DNA from: Dehalococcoidia bacterium
GTDB taxonomy: Bacteria; Chloroflexota; Dehalococcoidia; Lucifugimonadales; UBA3495
Length of the DNA: 64,000 nt
Assembly (NCBI GenBank): GCA_034420695.1
Contig: DAOULB010000002.1
Location: 151,644 to 215,643 of the forward strand
Direction: 5' to 3'
Position numbers and translations under genes: made by a program. The notes beneath the pieces were generated by a model, which was given only the letters and a program-made list of their open reading frames with translations, searched no databases and was not told where the DNA came from. The stretch's first letter is position 1; every line of letters begins with the position of its first letter. Shown here piece after piece: positions 1,181 to 12,784 of the stretch.

Positions 1181-2179
1181 ATGGCCCCGATTTCATCGCG
1201 CATGGAGACGAGATATACCACTGCATCGCACGCCATGTTAGAGGCGCTGCGAGGAACAACTGATATCGCCGAACTTGATCTGGACGCAGTTAGCGAAGTC
1301 AAAGGCATGTTTAATCGTTGTGTTCGCCAAGACCAGTGGGATTGGTTTAGCGTTCATACTAGACTCGGGCGTCCACATCTCCCCCAAATGCGCAGCATTG
1401 CTAGAGATTTGGACAATCTTCGCAAGTCGTTAAAGTTGGGAAATGACACATCCGCTCGAAACCACGTCGCTTCATTGGTTAGCAATAACCTTCACACCCT
1501 ACTGACAAATTACACTTCTCAACCAACTCATCTAAAGGGGTCTCAAGATTCTGGCTGGGTGTACATTTTGTCAACTCGTAAGCAACCTAACTACCTAAAA
1601 ATAGGAATGACTCACCGTCCCGTAGAGGATAGGGTCAAGGAAATCAATTCAGCGACGGGAGTTCTATTTCCATATTCTGTGCGTGCTGCCTTCCCTGTGA
1701 AGGATGCGAAGGTTGCTGAGAAGGCGGTTTTTGAGAGTCTTGAGGATTTTAGAGTAAGGGCTGATAGGGAATTCTTCGAGATCGATTTTGGGGAAGCGGC
1801 AAGAATCGTGCGGCAGGTCCTACACGAAGGTGGGATGATAGAACGCCCGAAGGGCAAAATCTCTTGGTTCGACAAGAAGAAAGGGTATGGACTCATAAAC
1901 ACATCTAATGGGGTGGATGTATTCCTTCATCATTCCCGGATTTCTAGGGCAAACACGGAGTTCTTGAGTGAGGGAACAACGGTTGAGTTTGACCTAGAAG
2001 TTACAGAGAGAGGACTAGCTGCCCTAAATGTAAAACTGTTGCCAGAACAGTTTGCTTTGCAAGAAGAAGACGAGGTGCCCGCGACGGCGCTGCTCAGTGA
2101 AGCCGCTCTAGCTGATGACTGGCTTAGTCCGGAAGAGGAAGAGGCATGGGCCCACTTGAAGGATCTGCCGTCGTTATAA
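1181..2179 (+). CDS. T5orf172 (MUG113, GIY-YIG-like) domain protein fused to a cold-shock domain, with an unknown N-terminal region of about 130 aa and an acidic C-terminal tail
   Basis: This is the in-frame ATG at 1181 of ORF 587..2179; the upstream part of that ORF is out-of-frame overlap with sufB. GWVYILSTRKQPNYLKIGMTHRPVEDRVKEINSATGV...REFFEIDF matches the T5orf172 pattern. GKISWFDKKKGYGLINTSNGVDVFLHHSRI matches the CSD RNP1/RNP2 motifs. The segment is visibly AT-richer (one sampled line is 47% GC). The start is uncertain; an alternative ATG is at 1202. Confidence 0.75.
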   Translation: MAPISSRMETRYTTASHAMLEALRGTTDIAELDLDAVSEVKGMFNRCVRQDQWDWFSVHTRLGRPHLPQMRSIARDLDNLRKSLKLGNDTSARNHVASLVSNNLHTLLTNYTSQPTHLKGSQDSGWVYILSTRKQPNYLKIGMTHRPVEDRVKEINSATGVLFPYSVRAAFPVKDAKVAEKAVFESLEDFRVRADREFFEIDFGEAARIVRQVLHEGGMIERPKGKISWFDKKKGYGLINTSNGVDVFLHHSRISRANTEFLSEGTTVEFDLEVTERGLAALNVKLLPEQFALQEEDEVPATALLSEAALADDWLSPEEEEAWAHLKDLPSL

Positions 2180-6474: not shown

Positions 6475-6939
6475 ATGACACAAGGCCCCGACCTCCCCCT
6501 CAGCGGTCTCTACGGCGACCGCATCCTCGACCATTTCCGGAATCCCCGCAATCGCGCTCCCCTTCCGGCCCCTGACCTCACGGCCAAGGAGTTCAACCCC
6601 TTCTGCGGAGACCGTGTCCTGCTCCAGTTCAAACTGGACGGGTCAGGGAAAGTGGCCCAAAGCTGCGCCGCGGCCGAAGGCTGCTCCATCATCCAGGCCT
6701 CGGCATCCATGCTGTCCTGCCAGTTGGAGGGAAAGTCCCTGGAAGAAGTCGAAGCTCTTTCGGCAAACTTCCGCTCGATGATGGAGGGCGAAGAGTTGCC
6801 CCCGGAAATCTTGGAGGCCTTGGGAGAATTGGAAGCCCTGAGGGTGGTCTTGGCCTACCCCGTACGCATCAAGTGCGCCCTCCTGCCCTGGGTAGCCTTG
6901 GAAGAAGGGGTGGAGTCATACCGGAAGGGCCCGCCTTAG
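6475..6939 (+). CDS. Second SufU/IscU-like protein (tandem paralog)
   Basis: It has NPFCGDRV, AEGCSIIQASASM and RIKCALLPW, the same three-Cys architecture as the upstream sufU. No Shine-Dalgarno is visible because the tandem repeat abuts the ATG. Confidence 0.8.
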   Translation: MTQGPDLPLSGLYGDRILDHFRNPRNRAPLPAPDLTAKEFNPFCGDRVLLQFKLDGSGKVAQSCAAAEGCSIIQASASMLSCQLEGKSLEEVEALSANFRSMMEGEELPPEILEALGELEALRVVLAYPVRIKCALLPWVALEEGVESYRKGPP

Positions 6940-6968
6940 GAAAACCGCCGCCCTTCGCCAAGTTAAGC

Positions 6969-7288
6969 ATGGACGGGAAGTCACGGTACTCCAACAACAC
7001 CTTCGTGGAGCGTCAGTGGCGGACGCCAAAGTACGAAGAGGCGCACTTGAAAGCCTGCCCCAACGTCCTGGAGGCCCACAGGGGGATAGAAGGCTACTTC
7101 CGGGTCTACAACGACCAGAGGTCCCACCAGGCCCTCGCCTACCGGACCCCGGCAGAGGCGTCCCACGGGGTACAGAGAGTCGTAGAAGAGAAACCCAACG
7201 AAAGGAAGTGTTCACCGGGAGAAGGCTCAGAACCACTGGCAGTGCACCGGGACTCTCGCTTAACTCTGCGCTAATTTTGTCCAGATGA
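6969..7288 (+). pseudogene. Relic of an IS3-family transposase (C-terminal end of the integrase-core OrfB); 5' truncated and probably frameshifted near the end
   Basis: SMDGKSRYSNNTFVERQWRTPKYEEAHLKACPNVLEAHRGIEGYFRVYNDQRSHQALAYRTPAEA matches the conserved ...DN.FIER.WR.LKYEEVYL...EA...I..YF.FYN..RPHQALGYRTPAEV tail. No catalytic DDE region lies upstream. An alternative frame (7016..7288) ends in ...SLNSALILSR. Confidence 0.75.
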
Positions 7289-7592
7289 CCAGGTACACTT
7301 CATTTTGCCTCCGTCCCCAACGAATCAAACGTGAGAATCTCTATTCACCTACATAAGGGCAGTAGTCCCTTGCCGGCCACAACGGGAAGGTCCGAATGGG
7401 CGGTCAGATTCACAGGCATTGAGCGAGTCGTTGGACCAAGCCGACAAATATTGACAGAACGTGGATGATAATTGGCCCAGAGGCATAGTACCGGACGTAC
7501 AGGTGACTTTGGCGGTGATCAGAGCGAAAGGGAACTTACGTGGGACCTGTCCCTAGGGTTAACAACGGAGGCTGTTCTGTTGTAGGCTAGAG

Positions 7593-7635
7593 ACGGTCCG
7601 AGTCAGTAGCTGCAACGCTAGTGACTCGGCACCGT
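7593..7635. other. Strong hairpin (13 bp with one bulge, 16-nt loop) flanked by TAGGCTAG direct repeats, upstream of dcm
   Basis: ACGGTCCGAGTCA (7593-7605) pairs with TGACTCGG(C)ACCGT (7622-7635). TAGGCTAG occurs at 7583-7590 and 7636-7643. No T-tract follows. Confidence 0.6.
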
Positions 7636-7721
7636 TAGGCTAGTAATACAAACCCCGAGCCAAATTACTCCAAATGGGGTGAATAGCTAGAAGTCCTAAC
7701 TGCCGTTTAGGCGGGAAGCGA

Positions 7722-8903
7722 TTGGATTCGTATAATTATTTTTGCTCAGAAGAAGATGACTCCCCAAAATTAGTGGATCTGTTCTGTGGAGTGGGAGGCC
7801 TTAGCCTTGGCTCTTCGAGAGCGGGGTTTTCGGTTCATGGCGCCTTCGACGTGGATCCTGAGGCTATTCATGCCCACAGCCGCAACTTCCCAGGCACAGT
7901 TCATTTTAACACCGACGTAGCTGGGGTGAAGGGGCGGTCACTCAAGCGTCAGTTGAACCTTAAAGGAAATAGTCTCGACGGGATCGTGGGAGGACCACCT
8001 TGCCAGGGTTTCAGTTCAATTGGAAGAAGGGATCAAGCTGATGCTCGGAACGAACTGTTTGTCGAGTTCTTCCGAGTAGTTTCGGAAGCAATGCCTCGCT
8101 TCTTCTTGGCCGAAAACGTCCCGGGAATCATGCGGGAAAGTTATCGTGAGACTAGGGAGCGTGCTTTTTCCCTCGTCGAGAGGAAATACTCGATTTTGCC
8201 GCCGATGGAATTTGCCGCAAACGAGTACGGAGTGGCCACAACTCGCAATCGGGTTTTTTTCTTTGGTTACCTTCAAGACAGAATGGAACCTCTGACCAGC
8301 GATTGCTTCAGTGCTCCTTCGGACGTGGAACGAGTTTACGTGAAGGATGCCTTGCGCGGATTGCCGGCGAAGATAGACCCGGCATGGCAGACTGAAGAGC
8401 TGAGTTGGCGGACAATCCAGGGTTACGAGGACAGCAACTACGCGGGAAGGCTTCACGGCCATATTCCGAAGGGAGTAGGTGAAGCCATTGCTTTAGAGCG
8501 CCTCAAAGTGTTCAACCAGGTTTCAGGATTCCTCGGAACGAGACATACGCCACGAGTAGCTAAGCGTTACGCAAACACAGAGCAGGGAAAGCACGATGGC
8601 ATCTCAAAATCGTACCGACTCGATCCCGAGGGCTTTTGTCCTACCCTGCGGGCGGGTACCGGTCCCGACCAGGGGAGCTTCCAAGCTGTTAGACCCATTC
8701 ACCCAACAGAAGCTCGAGTCATAACTCCCCGAGAAGGGGCTCGGCTACAAGGTTTTCCTGACTGGTTCCAGTTTTCTCACACAAAGTGGCATAGTTTTCG
8801 CCAAATTGGAAACAGCGTTAGCCCAATTCTCGCGGAGCATATTTTCACGGTCATTGCTGCGGCGTTAGGTACTACAGCTCAAGCGGTGCATTGGCAGGGT
8901 TAA
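7722..8903 (+). CDS. dcm: DNA (cytosine-5)-methyltransferase
   Basis: The C5-MTase motifs are in canonical order: DLFCGVGG (I), GGPPCQGFS (IV), ENV (VI), RVITPREGARLQGFPD (IX region) and QIGNSVSP (X). The start is ambiguous: TTG at 7722 as in the ORF track, or the in-frame GTG at 7773 just before DLFCGVGG. Confidence 0.93.
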   Translation: MDSYNYFCSEEDDSPKLVDLFCGVGGLSLGSSRAGFSVHGAFDVDPEAIHAHSRNFPGTVHFNTDVAGVKGRSLKRQLNLKGNSLDGIVGGPPCQGFSSIGRRDQADARNELFVEFFRVVSEAMPRFFLAENVPGIMRESYRETRERAFSLVERKYSILPPMEFAANEYGVATTRNRVFFFGYLQDRMEPLTSDCFSAPSDVERVYVKDALRGLPAKIDPAWQTEELSWRTIQGYEDSNYAGRLHGHIPKGVGEAIALERLKVFNQVSGFLGTRHTPRVAKRYANTEQGKHDGISKSYRLDPEGFCPTLRAGTGPDQGSFQAVRPIHPTEARVITPREGARLQGFPDWFQFSHTKWHSFRQIGNSVSPILAEHIFTVIAAALGTTAQAVHWQG

Positions 8904-9051
8904 CGCACAACAACTTCAATTCTGGGAAGTAGATGCCTCAGCAGTCAAGTCGTTTTTCGTTTCAATGATTACGAGGGACATAAAGCTGGAGGAGGTGTTC
9001 CTCGCCTTACTGGACGATTTTGACGATGGCATTCTCCGCTTCGGTAGCTGA
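8904..9051 (+). pseudogene. Decayed N-terminal relic (about 48 codons) of a GHKL ATPase gene immediately 3' of dcm
   Basis: The frame beginning right after the dcm stop reads ...EVDASAVKSFFVSMITRDIKLEEVFLALLDDFDDGILRFGS*. It aligns without gaps to the N-terminus of the intact GHKL protein at 10572..11900 (TVDASPTKGLFVEMLTRDIRMAMAILDLVDNCIDGAIRIRG). Over the last 25 positions I count 11 identities plus many conservative matches, and 9 of the 11 positions just before that (VDAS, K, FV, M). There is no start codon at the relic's 5' end and an early stop. Confidence 0.55.
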
Positions 9052-9130
9052 AAGGGCAAGAGACCCTATGCTGCCTTCCAAAGACATTCACCATACTCAC
9101 TAAGAGGAGTCCCGTATCGTTCCTTGTCTC

Positions 9131-9565
9131 ATGGATACGCGCACAGAGAAACAGCGCAGCAAAATCATGGCCGCAGTCCGGAGCAAGAACACTGGCCCGG
9201 AACTGCGGGTACGCCGTTACTTATGGTCCAAAGGATTGAGGTACCGTGTCAATGTGGCAAGCTTGCCGGGGACGCCCGATATTGTTCTGTCTCGGCACAA
9301 ATTGGCTATTTTCGTTCACGGGTGTTTCTGGCATAGCCATGCAGGTTGTCCGAGAGGGAAGCTGCCAAAGTCTAGAACGGACTACTGGAGTAATAAGGTC
9401 GACGCGAATAAGGCCCGCGATACCAAGATCAAGGAAACACTGGAACAGGACGGCTGGCGTCATCTTGTTGTCTGGGAGTGCCAGATACGGACCAAAGGGG
9501 CGGCCTCGGTAGCTCTGCCCAAGCTTCTCGAAGAGATTAGTACAATTTGTGCTGAGGTTATCTGA
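9131..9565 (+). CDS. vsr: Very short patch repair endonuclease Vsr
   Basis: RSKIMAAVRSKNTGPELRVRRYL...GLRYRVN...LPGTPDIVL...LAIFVHGCFWHSH.GC...PKSRTDYWSNKV..N..RD...LEQDGWRHLVVWECQ is the Vsr family signature. It is the classic companion of dcm. Confidence 0.93.
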   Translation: MDTRTEKQRSKIMAAVRSKNTGPELRVRRYLWSKGLRYRVNVASLPGTPDIVLSRHKLAIFVHGCFWHSHAGCPRGKLPKSRTDYWSNKVDANKARDTKIKETLEQDGWRHLVVWECQIRTKGAASVALPKLLEEISTICAEVI

Positions 9566-9640
9566 GTCCTCTCCCTAAAGACCTTCGTCACGCTTCCGTC
9601 CTCCCTAAATGGCCGAGGGGAGCCATCCACTGATCTGTCG

Positions 9641-10582
9641 TCAAAGGTCGGTTTCCATAAATGTTGGGTAGTAACGATACACAGTGCTATATCCGGACAC
9701 GTCTCTTGGTGCCAAAAATGCAGGGGTAGAGTTTCCAGAAGGCAATGCAGCAGATAGTTTCATCTGTTCCTTATACGTTAAAGGCGGGACACTAATTTCA
9801 AGCGGAACGTCTCCTTCCCGCAAGAAATCGTAGTCTTCGAATTCACAATTCGCAAGCCGTTGAGATTGGTCGGCTCGATAAATTACTCCACCAACAGTGG
9901 TCATTCGAACATCATCAGCGTATATGACATTAAACAATTGCCTATATTCGACCTTATTTTGGGAAGGGAGTGCGGCGTTCCTCAGGCTTAATGCCCGATG
10001 GAGTTCATTGTCGACAATCTGACGAATCAGCTTTTGAAACCTTTTGCCTCTCATATCCTCAGGCGTAGCATCAGCAGGTACCGAATCCCCCAATGTAGAT
10101 CGCAGTTCGTCTAACGGACTTTGGTCTTCCGACCTGAATGACCCGCCTTCAGCTTGGATAGTAAACAGAGCCATGCTGCCAGGTTCAACCTGTCTGAAAA
10201 TCGTGCCGATATCCGAAAGCATTCCTTCATTGATTGGGTCGTCGTAATCCATCCAGATGATTGAGGGAATTCCATTCCACAGAAGATTGGGCAGCATTTC
10301 AGTCGATTCTCCCCAGCACATTTCAATGCAATCAAAAGGTTTGTTGAAGAGAAATCTGTCTTTGTCCTGAGACTCGCGTTCGATGCAGTTTAAATTAGTG
10401 ATTCCGTAGCGTCGATGAATCGACGCGAAATCGTTAAAGAACGGGGATCCGAGCCCGATGTATCTGAATCCCAGAAGATTCGAGAAGGCACCTAATCTCG
10501 AGCAAACTTCGACTATCATTTTTCGCTCTACCGCCTTGGCAGGACGAAGCCTGAAGTTAACGAGTCGATAACTAGGAGGCAT
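9641..10582 (-). CDS. Uncharacterised partner protein (about 314 aa) translationally coupled to the GHKL ATPase; the N-terminal half resembles a Rossmann/class-I-methyltransferase fold
   Basis: The ATG at 10582 is preceded by GGAGG-containing sequence and overlaps the GHKL stop (TAG 10574..10572) by 11 nt. The ORF track's alternative start is 10612. FRYIGLGSPFFNDF (Gly-rich loop), an acidic NCIERE about 25 aa later, and IIWMDYDDP about 50 aa later resemble SAM-MTase motifs I, II and IV. That resemblance is my inference only. I see no clear nuclease motif. Confidence 0.7.
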   Translation of the reverse strand: MPPSYRLVNFRLRPAKAVERKMIVEVCSRLGAFSNLLGFRYIGLGSPFFNDFASIHRRYGITNLNCIERESQDKDRFLFNKPFDCIEMCWGESTEMLPNLLWNGIPSIIWMDYDDPINEGMLSDIGTIFRQVEPGSMALFTIQAEGGSFRSEDQSPLDELRSTLGDSVPADATPEDMRGKRFQKLIRQIVDNELHRALSLRNAALPSQNKVEYRQLFNVIYADDVRMTTVGGVIYRADQSQRLANCEFEDYDFLREGDVPLEISVPPLTYKEQMKLSAALPSGNSTPAFLAPRDVSGYSTVYRYYPTFMETDL

Positions 10583-11900
10583 CGATGTTCTCTTGATCCA
10601 CGTAATAATCAAAAGTCATTTCTCCCGCTGCTCGAGCGCTCCCTGCACTAAGACTTTTCCTGACCGCGGTAACTAGCCATGCAGGCTTCTGGTATTGAAT
10701 TGAAATTAGTCGCTCGGTCACCGGAGGCGGAGGCGGAGGGGCCTGATAGGTGAAGTTCTCTGAACGGGACAGACTTACGATGGAAGCTGGCTTGGCGGTC
10801 CTGTCTACTAGGTTCATTAGGGGTCTCGAACCCTCCGGATTTTCATTGTCGCGGTCCACTGCATCCAAGAACCGGATCACCTGCTCCATCACAGTTAGCA
10901 TCAACCCATAGGCCTCTACGAAAACGGGTACACCCTCGTCTACTCCATCTTTGGTTGTATTCCATGGGAGCAAGGTAGAATCAGCGCTATCAAAAAAAGC
11001 GGCTCCTCTAAAGCGGGCATACTGATTGTGAAACCTCGGCATAATCCCAGGCTCGCCCCACCCAGTCGTTCTAGTTCTATCTCCCTCCAACACCATTCTC
11101 CCATTGCAATACACGTACCAACCAGCTTCTCGCGGGCTTGAATGCCCAACTCCCGCTACAAGACGTACATGAACCCCTTCCCGCTCGTATGCCCTATACG
11201 CAGGTCGTAGCAAGGGAGAGTCCGAGGTCAAGAACTCCAAACGAGAGGTCGGTATCGTTACTCCGTTCAATGAAATGGATATCCCATTGTCTATCTGGTA
11301 CTGATGGCGCCTGGATATTTCTCTCGTTAGATTCGTCAAATTATATGGAATCCCAACCCAACTCTTGGCTTCCTCAGTCAATTGAGTAACAGTTATTGTT
11401 GTGCCTATATCAGTCTCAGGCGGAGCCTCGGTCAAATGTTCGATATCTAGGACTGGGAAAGTCCATTCCTCAAGATCCATCCACTCGTCAACATCAGCGG
11501 TAATCCTGTACCTCTCATTTATGTTCGTGGTTGCAACGTCGAAGTAGCGCCCTAGTTTGAAGAGAGCTCTCTTCATCCCTACCCCGAATCGTCCAACGGA
11601 GTGCCTAACGCTGGGGGCTCCCGAAGGTCTTCCAAACCGAAACGCATAGTCAGTCGCCAAAGCCAATGGGATCCCGCCGCAGTTGTCTCCAATAATGAAG
11701 TGCTCTTGGTCAAATGTAATTTGAACAGTCAGGCCTTCTAGCGGAGCTTCACCTCGAATTCTTATTGCGCCATCAATGCAGTTATCGACGAGGTCCAATA
11801 TGGCCATTGCCATACGGATGTCTCTTGTGAGCATCTCTACGAATAGTCCCTTCGTAGGTGAGGCGTCGACGGTTACGCGCCCCTGATTGGTGCTCATCAT
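10572..11900 (-). CDS. GHKL-superfamily ATPase (HATPase_c_3 type, MORC-like/paraMORC)
   Basis: It has the N-box ILDLVDNCIDGA, the G1/G2-type motifs IIGDNCGGIP and GRFGVGMKRALFKLG, and a C-terminal GWYVYCNGRMV...LPWNTTKDGV region like the MORC S5-type module. I chose ATGATG at 11900/11897, directly after GGAGGAA. The ORF track's TTG at 11993 is the alternative start. Confidence 0.8.
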   Translation of the reverse strand: MMSTNQGRVTVDASPTKGLFVEMLTRDIRMAMAILDLVDNCIDGAIRIRGEAPLEGLTVQITFDQEHFIIGDNCGGIPLALATDYAFRFGRPSGAPSVRHSVGRFGVGMKRALFKLGRYFDVATTNINERYRITADVDEWMDLEEWTFPVLDIEHLTEAPPETDIGTTITVTQLTEEAKSWVGIPYNLTNLTREISRRHQYQIDNGISISLNGVTIPTSRLEFLTSDSPLLRPAYRAYEREGVHVRLVAGVGHSSPREAGWYVYCNGRMVLEGDRTRTTGWGEPGIMPRFHNQYARFRGAAFFDSADSTLLPWNTTKDGVDEGVPVFVEAYGLMLTVMEQVIRFLDAVDRDNENPEGSRPLMNLVDRTAKPASIVSLSRSENFTYQAPPPPPPVTERLISIQYQKPAWLVTAVRKSLSAGSARAAGEMTFDYYVDQENIDAS

Positions 11901-12784
11901 TTCCTCCAAGCAATCTAGTACGCGGTGTCCTGACAGACTGGGCAATTGCACCGATGCGACTATCGACAGCCAGTCGACCAAAGGGGTTGCCAAGCCTATT
12001 CCTAAGGAGACGGCCTGACTCGGAAAAACAGGGGTTTGGTAGCCGGATTTATACTAGACTCTTCAGGTCGCAGATGATCGACCCAAATCACTTTCGAGTT
12101 CTGAAGCGAAAACCGCCCGAGCACTTTTTGCTTCACCATTGTGGCTGCTCACCGCGGTAGTTTCATTAAGTGTGGTGTGGAATGTTAAAACCCAATTGAC
12201 CAGGCCGTCAACTAAGCCCGCCTCGCACGACGCCGCGTAAGCCCGTGCAATTGGACCAATACAAGGCTAAGTTTCTTCCGCCCATGTTTCTGTCGAAGAT
12301 TCGGGCGCGGGTCAGTACTAACAAGCTGGGATAGCGCCTTGGTTGGGGCTGTACCTAGGCATTTTCGTGAGCCTAACCGTCCGACTTCTGCGTTCAGACC
12401 ATCCAACAAGACTGGCGCCTTTAGTTGACCAGTTTTCGGGAATCAGGTCACTACACCCAACCACCTCTCAAACACGGTCTGGCCCACCGTCAAAATAGCC
12501 CCACCTAAGAAAATTCAAACCCGCTGCAACAGCGCTGAAGAACCGACAACCCATTCTGCCAGCCCTGCTTGGTCGCCTGCCAGGCTTCTAACCCTGTAGC
12601 CTTACCGCAATTCATTCGCCACGCCCTCCCTTCAAGTGCACGCCCCACGAGCATCGCAATCTTCCGTTGCGATTACTCTCTAAGCTTGACGATGAGAAGG
12701 TAGGCGGGACAGGGCGCGCCCAGAGACAAGCTGAGCCCTGCGACAGGAACGGTACGAGAAAGAGGTGGGGCCGGGGTTGGGGGC

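Follow-up and report, generated by a model that had tools for sequence, protein, structure and literature searches.

Two adjoining minus-strand genes lie at 9641-11897 in a 64,000-nucleotide stretch of DNA from a Dehalococcoidia bacterium (contig DAOULB010000002.1 of assembly GCA_034420695.1, forward-strand positions 151,644 to 215,643; this whole stretch is called the window). The first encodes a GHKL+S5 ATPase of the MORC/MutL type (441 amino acids [aa], 10572..11897), and the second a partner with a class-I methyltransferase fold that belongs to the PF20553 family (Methyltransf_35; 313 aa, 9641..10582). The pair converges on two plus-strand genes, one for a Dcm C5 cytosine DNA methyltransferase (393 aa, 7722..8903; PF00145, E 2.9e-56; TIGR00675, 4.5e-43; PADLOC MTase_II, 1.7e-91) and one for a Vsr very-short-patch T:G mismatch endonuclease (144 aa, 9131..9565; PF03852, 5.7e-32; TIGR00632, 7.8e-44). 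In an earlier note on this DNA it was proposed that the two minus-strand genes form the restriction or effector arm of the dcm system.

The description of two minus-strand genes overlapping by 11 nucleotides (nt) given in that note is confirmed by the open reading frames (ORFs) and by the stop and start positions. The ATPase gene ends with TAG at 10574-10572, and the ATG of the partner lies at 10582-10580, so that the overlap spans 10572..10582 on the minus strand; such a stop-start overlap argues for translational coupling of the two genes. Other details required correction. The GGAGG that had been placed before the ATG of the partner is instead a Shine-Dalgarno sequence in front of the ATPase (11903..11907, minus strand), 5 nt upstream of the ATG at 11897 as read from the sequence. 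Two candidate ATGs, at 11900 or 11897, follow this GGAGG, and gene calls on the identical public contig place the start at 11897. Position 11993, given previously as the ATPase end of the module, is merely the beginning of the longest TTG-started ORF.

Together, dcm, vsr and the pair are the four genes of a low-GC island at 7000-12500 (7500-12500 in one profile of the window). The existence of this AT-rich island, also reported previously, stands, but its contrast with the surroundings is milder than the figure of about 70% GC given for the backbone would imply: 47-53% GC in the island versus 60-68% in the flanks. On the left, the island is preceded by a suf operon, which contains sufS and two NifU-like genes, and then by an rve_3 integrase-core transposase fragment at its edge (6873..7274, plus strand; PF13683, 5.4e-10); on the right lies rho-tal-pyrG. 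As had been stated, no Z1, AIPR, or PD-(D/E)xK gene was found in the island in the ORF list or with Pfam or PADLOC. It was also correctly seen that dcm-vsr lacks a recognisable cognate endonuclease; Vsr is the sole nuclease found in the island with Pfam, NCBIfam, and PADLOC, and the locus is thus not a classical Type II restriction-modification (R-M) system. Direct repeats and tRNA-type ends were looked for at the island borders and none were found, and promoter and terminator scans gave no matches above chance level.

The ATPase and its methyltransferase-fold partner

By its motifs and its fold, the ATPase belongs to the GHKL superfamily and is of the MORC/MutL type (HATPase_c_3 + S5). It matches PF13589 (HATPase_c_3) with 37.7 bits against a cut-off of 25 (E 2.6e-9), and the GHKL and MORC-type motifs quoted previously are all present (ILDLVDNCIDGA, IIGDNCGGIP, GRFGVGMKRA, and GWYVYCNGRMV). 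Among 30 homologues, down to 26% identity, the residues D35, D38, N39, D42, and G43 of the N-box (ILD35LVD38N39CID42G43A) are invariant, as are the G1 motif (D71-N-C-G-G75), the G2 motif (G102-R-F-G-V-G107, in GRFGVGMKR), and the S5 transducer lysine, K316 of PWNTTK316. When the AlphaFold2 (AF2) model of the protein, which has a predicted local distance difference test (pLDDT) score of 85, is used in Foldseek, it retrieves the ATPase and transducer regions of ParE/GyrB, MORC2, Hsp90/TRAP1, and SMCHD1 with E values of about 1e-13 over some 380-460 columns. The C-terminal ~50 aa form a conserved two-helix domain that follows a Pro-rich linker. A guess that this domain is a ribbon-helix-helix was searched as a profile against the PDB and gave no match (E about 1).

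The partner, which had been taken for a member of an unknown family, is in fact a full-length member of PF20553 (314.4 bits against a cut-off of 27, E 1.1e-93), with residues 4-311 aligning to positions 2-307 of the 309-position model. This family is catalogued under the database name Methyltransf_35, "putative O-methyltransferase", though it is uncharacterised, and a literature search found no paper on it under either name. When 1.84 billion cluster representatives were searched with a profile, 2,036 members were found at E<=1e-10; among the best 150 of these, nearly all are stand-alone proteins of ~300-370 aa.

The suggestion of a methyltransferase-like motif spacing in the partner has held up well. 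The AF2 model (pLDDT 90.4) has the Rossmann-like seven-strand fold and the strand order of a class-I S-adenosylmethionine (SAM) methyltransferase, to which a helical insert and a C-terminal extension are added, and the positions of motifs I, II, and IV are conserved. The quoted motifs YIGLGS, CIERE, and WMDYDDP are all present. In an alignment of 35 sequences reaching down to 26% identity, the invariant residues are R13, K16, and R20, which make a basic N-terminal helix; Y41, G43, and G45 of the Gly loop (Y41-I-G43-L-G45) after strand 1; H56; the acidic E68 at the end of strand 2; N80 and P82; W110, D112, and Y113; and Y221 and D223. The W110-x-D112-Y113 motif, which comes after strand 4, matches no known motif such as DPPY, NPPY, or K-D-K-E. 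Because the Gly loop, E68, and W110-D112-Y113 are invariant, the partner has likely retained SAM binding, as far as can be judged from the alignment. A Toprim-like partner, with an E...DxD arrangement and by analogy to the B and A subunits of Topo VI, was also considered; it was rejected, given that D112 alone is invariant within 'DYDD' and that the Gly loop, the acidic residue, and the fold are those of a methyltransferase.

The structure gives little indication of what the partner acts on. A Foldseek search against the PDB returned 425 matches at E<=1e-3, with template modelling (TM) scores of just 0.26-0.37, and the 50 PDB matches listed are all SAM-dependent methyltransferases, spermidine synthases, or other class-I-fold enzymes. 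Thus, these matches are to generic SAM methyltransferase folds alone and provide no pointer to a substrate. The best E value of a sequence profile of the partner against PDB sequences was 0.36. No nuclease family match was obtained with Pfam, NCBIfam, or PADLOC, in agreement with the previous failure to recognise a nuclease motif in this protein. A separate observation concerns viruses. In BFVD, the best matches to the AF2 model are giant-virus proteins annotated as 'chromo domain-containing' (Tetraselmis virus 1, Hyperionvirus), with uncharacterised Yasminevirus proteins also among the best viral matches; their TM scores of 0.43-0.48 lie above that of every PDB match. Judging from the models, domains like PF20553 may be present in chromatin proteins of eukaryotic viruses.

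Pairing and linkage to DNA-modification genes

The distribution of the two genes was surveyed with two scans, which together cover 160 loci. The genome scan was anchored on the partner and gave 80 loci from Chloroflexota, Cyanobacteria, Acidobacteriota, Bacteroidota, Bacillota, Actinomycetota, Pseudomonadota, Planctomycetota, Verrucomicrobiota, and others; one of the 80 is a contig of just 1.1 kb, and pairing was counted in the other 79. The metagenome scan was anchored on the ATPase and also gave 80 loci, 78 of which have room downstream. The ATPase gene lies directly upstream of PF20553 on the same strand in 79/79 genome loci, and PF20553 lies directly downstream of the ATPase in all 78 testable metagenome loci. 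At the junction, the genes overlap in 47 of the 79 genome loci, and the gap is <=19 nt in all, which bears out the earlier view of a co-translated pair. Furthermore, the pairwise identities of the ATPase and of PF20553 correlate (r=0.88). The ATPase and PF20553 are therefore an obligate, co-translated two-gene unit. In PHROGs, both proteins are present as families of unknown function.

To describe the surroundings of the pair, flanking ORFs were clustered, and the clusters were named with Pfam and PADLOC. In ~90% of the loci, a modification gene is found within a few kb of the pair. The survey for co-occurrence with dcm and vsr, which had been advised previously, found Dcm beside the pair in 38/79 genome loci (18 of them also with Vsr) and in 64/80 metagenome loci (18 with Vsr). 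In 40 of 62 cases in the metagenome set, the gene just upstream of the pair, in the same orientation, is Dcm. Where the pair is linked to Dcm, the divergence of Dcm parallels that of the ATPase (Mantel r=0.59, a value reached by 0 of 2000 permutations), and the most distant homologue sampled, at 26% identity, lies in a Dcm-ATPase-PF20553-Vsr operon. Across phyla, the pair is linked to Dcm, with or without Vsr, much more often than chance would allow.

The idea that the pair is an arm of dcm is thus upheld as to the linkage but not as to its specificity, since the pair is found equally in dnd clusters and once with DISARM. Dnd genes (DndC, DndD, DndE or a DndE-HerA fusion, DndA, and sometimes DndB) accompany it in 30 of the genome loci and 7 of the metagenome loci, and within dnd clusters the pair lies between DndE and DndA. 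A search among ten large ORFs beside Dnd-linked pairs found no DndFGH. In five genome loci, from Lachnospiraceae, the neighbour is a 333-aa DndC-like phosphoadenosine phosphosulfate (PAPS) reductase. In the DISARM case, plasmid pR24_2 of Microvirga terrae, the pair sits within a class-1 operon in the order DrmD, MmeI-like DrmMI, ATPase, PF20553, DrmA, DUF1998, DrmC. No modification module is visible in 6 genome and 9 metagenome loci, 7 of the latter being short contigs. In a tree built from the concatenated pair, pairs linked to Dcm are mixed in among those linked to Dnd, and the pair has therefore changed its modification partner several times.

The pair is also located on mobile elements and in defence islands. 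ATPase-PF20553-Dcm is carried as accessory cargo by a Pf filamentous prophage of P. aeruginosa; the paper that described this prophage cassette listed the methylase alone and scored the system "incomplete". A haloarchaeal integrated element also carries the three-gene Dcm cassette; for this archaeal homologue, from Halorubellus, Dcm-ATPase-PF20553 is close to an integrase. Islands that bear the pair contain integrases, transposases, and a TrwC relaxase, and other genes in them include Mrr, GmrSD, SIR2, an HNH/AAA_21 gene pair, and NERD-UvrD. Apart from Vsr, which a minority of the loci have, the cassette has no conserved nuclease companion in either the genome or the metagenome set.

Some features of individual loci (given here by their locus numbers) were seen in addition. 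A DndE fused to a HerA/FtsK-like ATPase is directly upstream of the pair in L011, L015, L017, L021, L026, L027, L030, L031, L043, and L052. The HerA/FtsK-like part of this fusion resembles the C-terminal domain of DndH (PADLOC DndH 1367-1647; also mad8), and clustering placed the full-length DndH of L051 and L070 together with the fusions. In several cassettes, an extra, longer GHKL protein (540-650 aa), in which HATPase_c_3 alone is recognised, is encoded next to Dcm and beside the pair (L059 10437-12167, L117 8249-9862, L124 2738-4573, L128 3755-5608, and L141 3953-5893); its C-terminal ~300 aa match no Pfam family. In the Lachnospiraceae locus L083 (1097-8957), the order is SF2 helicase, 603-aa HATPase_c_3 protein, PLD-family protein, DndC-like PAPS reductase, ATPase-PF20553, so that an operon of the MORC-helicase-HKD type is joined to the pair. 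A Thiolapillus-type pair adjoins a DDE_Tnp_1 transposase in L168, L170, and L172, as if it were passenger cargo of an insertion sequence (IS). Finally, outside the island, the window has a T5orf172/MUG113 + cold-shock-domain gene at 1607-2179 (plus strand), in a low-GC patch at 1001-2000; judging by the gene calls on the identical public contig (L001, 18404-18976), this gene appears inside the suf operon, with SufB/D-type and SufC-type genes on either side.

The deletion scar between dcm and vsr

A weak tblastn match of the ATPase between dcm and vsr prompted a comparison of the window with L003/L005, a Dehalococcoidia metagenome-assembled genome in which the counterpart of the window pair has 82-86% protein identity and the DNA is 73-76% identical. 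In L003, an ATPase-PF20553 pair converges on Vsr-PF20553b-ATPase2-Dcm, giving two paralogous pairs, the second of which is likewise composed of an HATPase_c_3 protein and a PF20553 protein (7.6e-57). Positions 7771-9071 of the window align with 15047-13747 of L003, and positions 9067-11908 align with 11517-8675. The window is thus without 2,229 bp that are present in L003 and that encode ATPase2 and PF20553b.

The traces of this loss are visible at 8904..9130 (plus strand), where the tblastn remnant, the DNA alignment, the blastn breakpoints, and translation of the frames identify a deletion scar. A 5' remnant of a second GHKL gene (~8929-9066, ~140 nt) reads EVDASAVKSFFVSMITRDIKLEE and then LLDDFDDGILRFGS before it is terminated by a stop codon; it still contains the N-box region of ATPase2, in degenerated form. 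At ~9067-9071, this remnant meets what is left of a second PF20553 gene, its 3' tail. From these sequence comparisons, dcm-vsr originally came with a pair of its own, in an operon of four codirectional genes, and the pair at 9641-11897 is a second, surviving one.

This history bears on the interpretation in two ways. Because the pair belonging to dcm-vsr was deleted, it is uncertain that the surviving pair is 'the' partner of the window dcm; in L003, its counterpart has just IS elements upstream. On the other hand, the loss of a paralogous pair while dcm and vsr stayed intact is the order of decay expected for a dispensable or toxic (restriction) arm.

Role of the pair and relation to known systems

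Given all of these findings, the ATPase and PF20553 are a two-gene module that is firmly tied in function to DNA-modification and defence loci. Its gene neighbourhood suggests a restriction or effector role. The reading favoured here, tentatively and with somewhat less than an even chance of being correct, is that the pair is an ATP-gated, SAM-using sensor or effector arm of modification-based immunity. In this model, the two proteins would work as a single machine, in which a dimerising GHKL+S5 (MORC/MutL-like) ATPase would clamp or scan DNA and the second subunit, tightly coupled to it, would be PF20553 with its SAM-binding methyltransferase fold. This portable module would plug into whichever modification module is adjacent: Dcm, which makes 5-methylcytosine (5mC), in this case, and Dnd phosphorothioate or the DISARM methylase elsewhere. 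In a Dcm-ATPase-PF20553 cassette, with or without Vsr, the pair would most likely be the non-modifying arm, an ATP-gated sensor/effector that acts on DNA without the resident mark, and PF20553, rather than a classical nuclease, would be the catalytic or ligand-sensing part. We infer the complex of the two proteins, its reading of the modification state, the resulting restriction or abortion, and whatever PF20553 would methylate or bind.

This sensor or effector arm is favoured because the Dcm cassette of three genes travels in one piece on prophages, plasmids, and islands and offers no other candidate for the non-modifying half, because the pair occupies the position of a restriction partner in dnd clusters without DndFGH, and because the decay in the window, in which a pair was lost and the methylase was kept, fits a restriction arm. 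However, several observations weigh against it. Neither protein has a nuclease or other toxic domain recognisable with Pfam, PADLOC, or Foldseek, and the catalytic acid in the N-box of the ATPase is Asp, where the usual residue is Glu. For some pairs, the surrounding 6-10 kb contain no modification gene, and an identical Thiolapillus-type pair occurs in five chromosomal contexts (metagenome contigs L168-L172); lethal restriction by such orphan or IS-borne pairs would not be tolerated unless a methylase is present elsewhere in the genome. Furthermore, DndG and DndH are directly upstream of the pair in L051 (by PADLOC), and L070 has the same layout (by clustering). Given this coexistence, the idea that the pair simply takes the place of DndFGH as the restriction arm of Dnd was dropped. 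The pair on pR24_2 coexists with a full DISARM gene set. In addition, one reader protein would face three chemically different marks.

Other explanations have to be considered. A possible but less likely one is that the pair is a non-restricting accessory, composed of an ATP-driven loader or regulator and a second methyltransferase, neither of which is toxic or defensive alone; it would place a second mark on DNA, RNA, or protein, or would tune the neighbouring modification enzyme. The invariant motifs of the SAM site suggest a working methyltransferase, and the pair comes directly after modifying genes (Dcm, DndE, DrmMI). Its coexistence with DndG/DndH and with complete DISARM restriction genes, the pairs beside IS elements with no methylase in view, and the loss of a pair in the window that left dcm intact are also in keeping with an accessory. 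Nevertheless, it is general knowledge that the characterised Dcm, Dnd, and DISARM systems work without a helper of this sort, and a non-restricting Dcm cassette would have no obvious selective reason to travel as a unit on prophages and islands. A 2024 reappraisal of Dnd neighbourhoods makes no mention of GHKL, MORC, MutL, or HATPase (PMC10853773). It is rather unlikely that the two genes make up a defence or abortive-infection system by themselves, one that is merely co-located with R-M, Dnd, and DISARM genes and might sense a product of infection, such as modified nucleotides from degraded host DNA. The defence islands with Mrr, GmrSD, SIR2, the HNH/AAA_21 pair, and NERD-UvrD, together with the existence of orphan pairs, would fit such a system, as would systems triggered by methylated mononucleotides, which recent papers reportedly describe. 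Yet mere co-location does not account for the operonic adjacency, with Dcm directly upstream on the same strand and the pair embedded between DrmMI and DrmA or between DndE and DndA, nor for the co-divergence of Dcm with the pair and the presence of a modification gene close by in most loci.

A role in very-short-patch (VSP) repair, in which the MutL-like ATPase would stimulate Vsr at T:G mismatches arising from 5mC deamination, is very improbable. E. coli MutL does stimulate Vsr, as cited in PMC2292703, and Dcm-ATPase-PF20553-Vsr operons occur. However, Vsr accompanies less than half of the Dcm-linked loci (18/38 genome, 18/64 metagenome), the pair is tied no less to Dnd and DISARM, neither of which creates T:G mismatches, and the methyltransferase-fold subunit would be left without a role. 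There is next to no chance that the partner is a housekeeping small-molecule O-methyltransferase whose adjacency to the ATPase is fortuitous. Pfam and NCBI do apply the name 'O-methyltransferase', and natural-product O-methyltransferases are among the top Foldseek matches; however, the TM scores of 0.3-0.37 point to generic fold similarity, the genes lie in low-GC mobile islands, and no biosynthetic genes are conserved nearby. Above all, the adjacency to the ATPase holds in 157/157 cases across many phyla, which in effect refutes this possibility, one that the earlier note had itself raised against its proposal. Another proposal, also rather unlikely, is that the pair is a nuclease-free, modification-agnostic effector. 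In this case, a MORC-like clamp would form on DNA lacking the mark (5mC, phosphorothioate, or N6-methyladenine), after which the methyltransferase-fold subunit would silence or mark the DNA or trigger abortive infection. If this were true, such an effector would be a prokaryotic forerunner of the coupling of eukaryotic MORCs to methylation-based silencing of foreign DNA.

The sensor or effector arm favoured here has parallels in known systems. MORC and paraMORC GHKL ATPases in R-M operons were described by Iyer, Abhiman & Aravind in 2008 (PMC2292703), who proposed that they remodel or loop DNA for the restriction complex. The present locus resembles the operons treated there in having a GHKL+S5 ATPase beside cytosine methylases and Vsr in mobile R-M-like operons. 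However, the partners named in the passages searched are SF2 helicases, RE-fold/HNH/HKD nucleases, TIR, Z1, and AIPR, with no PF20553-type partner and no link to Dnd. Thus, MORC/paraMORC ATPases in R-M operons were already known, and what is probably new is PF20553 as a tightly coupled partner. The nearest layout, with Dcm upstream, an HATPase_c_3 paraMORC-like gene, a tightly linked Rossmann-like second gene, and often Vsr downstream, was reported by Bellieny-Rabelo et al. 2021 (PMC8011034) for the likewise uncharacterised, 'two-component-like' HEF_HK/Response_reg_2 pairs. In those pairs, the ATPase has HEF_HK (PF19191) and the second gene is the CheY-like PF19192, whereas the window partner has a methyltransferase fold; neither PF19191 nor PF19192 was detected in the window pair in a Pfam scan (E<=1).

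Among defence models in PADLOC and NCBIfam, the sole one that touches the window ATPase is MzaB, the MutL-like GHKL ATPase of MzaABCDE (MZA), an anti-phage system of several genes. This match is far below threshold (PADLOC, 15.6 bits, E 1e-3; NCBIfam NF041932, 19.1 bits against a cut-off of 850) and spans only the N-terminal ~110 residues, and the Z1 and AIPR partners of MZA are absent from the island. PADLOC, which the earlier note had advised running, does not recognise the pair as a known system, and it has no model for either protein, the DISARM-embedded copy included. The pair is like DndFGH, PbeABCD, SspE, and DISARM DrmABC in being encoded beside a modification module; those proteins are thought to act on unmodified DNA. 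It differs from them in that its proteins are unrelated, include no nuclease or helicase, and can coexist with DndG/DndH and DrmABC. GHKL gating of an effector in phage defence has been shown experimentally for VcSduA, a GHKL-fused Shedu (paraMORC3/VcSduA, PMC12137116). However, the Shedu effector is a fused PD-(D/E)xK nuclease (DUF4263), whereas the candidate effector in the window is a separate methyltransferase-fold protein. Literature searches on the pair, on GHKL with dnd, and on HATPase_c_3 with dnd found nothing that describes an ATPase-PF20553 pair.

Since MORC-type ATPases were predicted in the R-M-like operons of bacteria in 2008, hardly any of them have been tested. The present analysis defines a partner family of ~2,000 protein clusters in many bacterial phyla and at least one archaeon, and it reveals that one and the same pair of genes joins up with DNA-modification systems of three unrelated chemistries. 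For the many Dcm methylases that look like orphans, and for dnd clusters without DndFGH, the pair is a candidate for the missing 'other half'; it also draws attention to cassettes that present tools rate as incomplete. As a small three-gene system, the Dcm cassette would discriminate self from foreign DNA by means of a GHKL clamp and a SAM-binding subunit, with no obvious nuclease. How such discrimination might be achieved also bears on the origin of the cooperation between MORCs and DNA methylation in eukaryotes.

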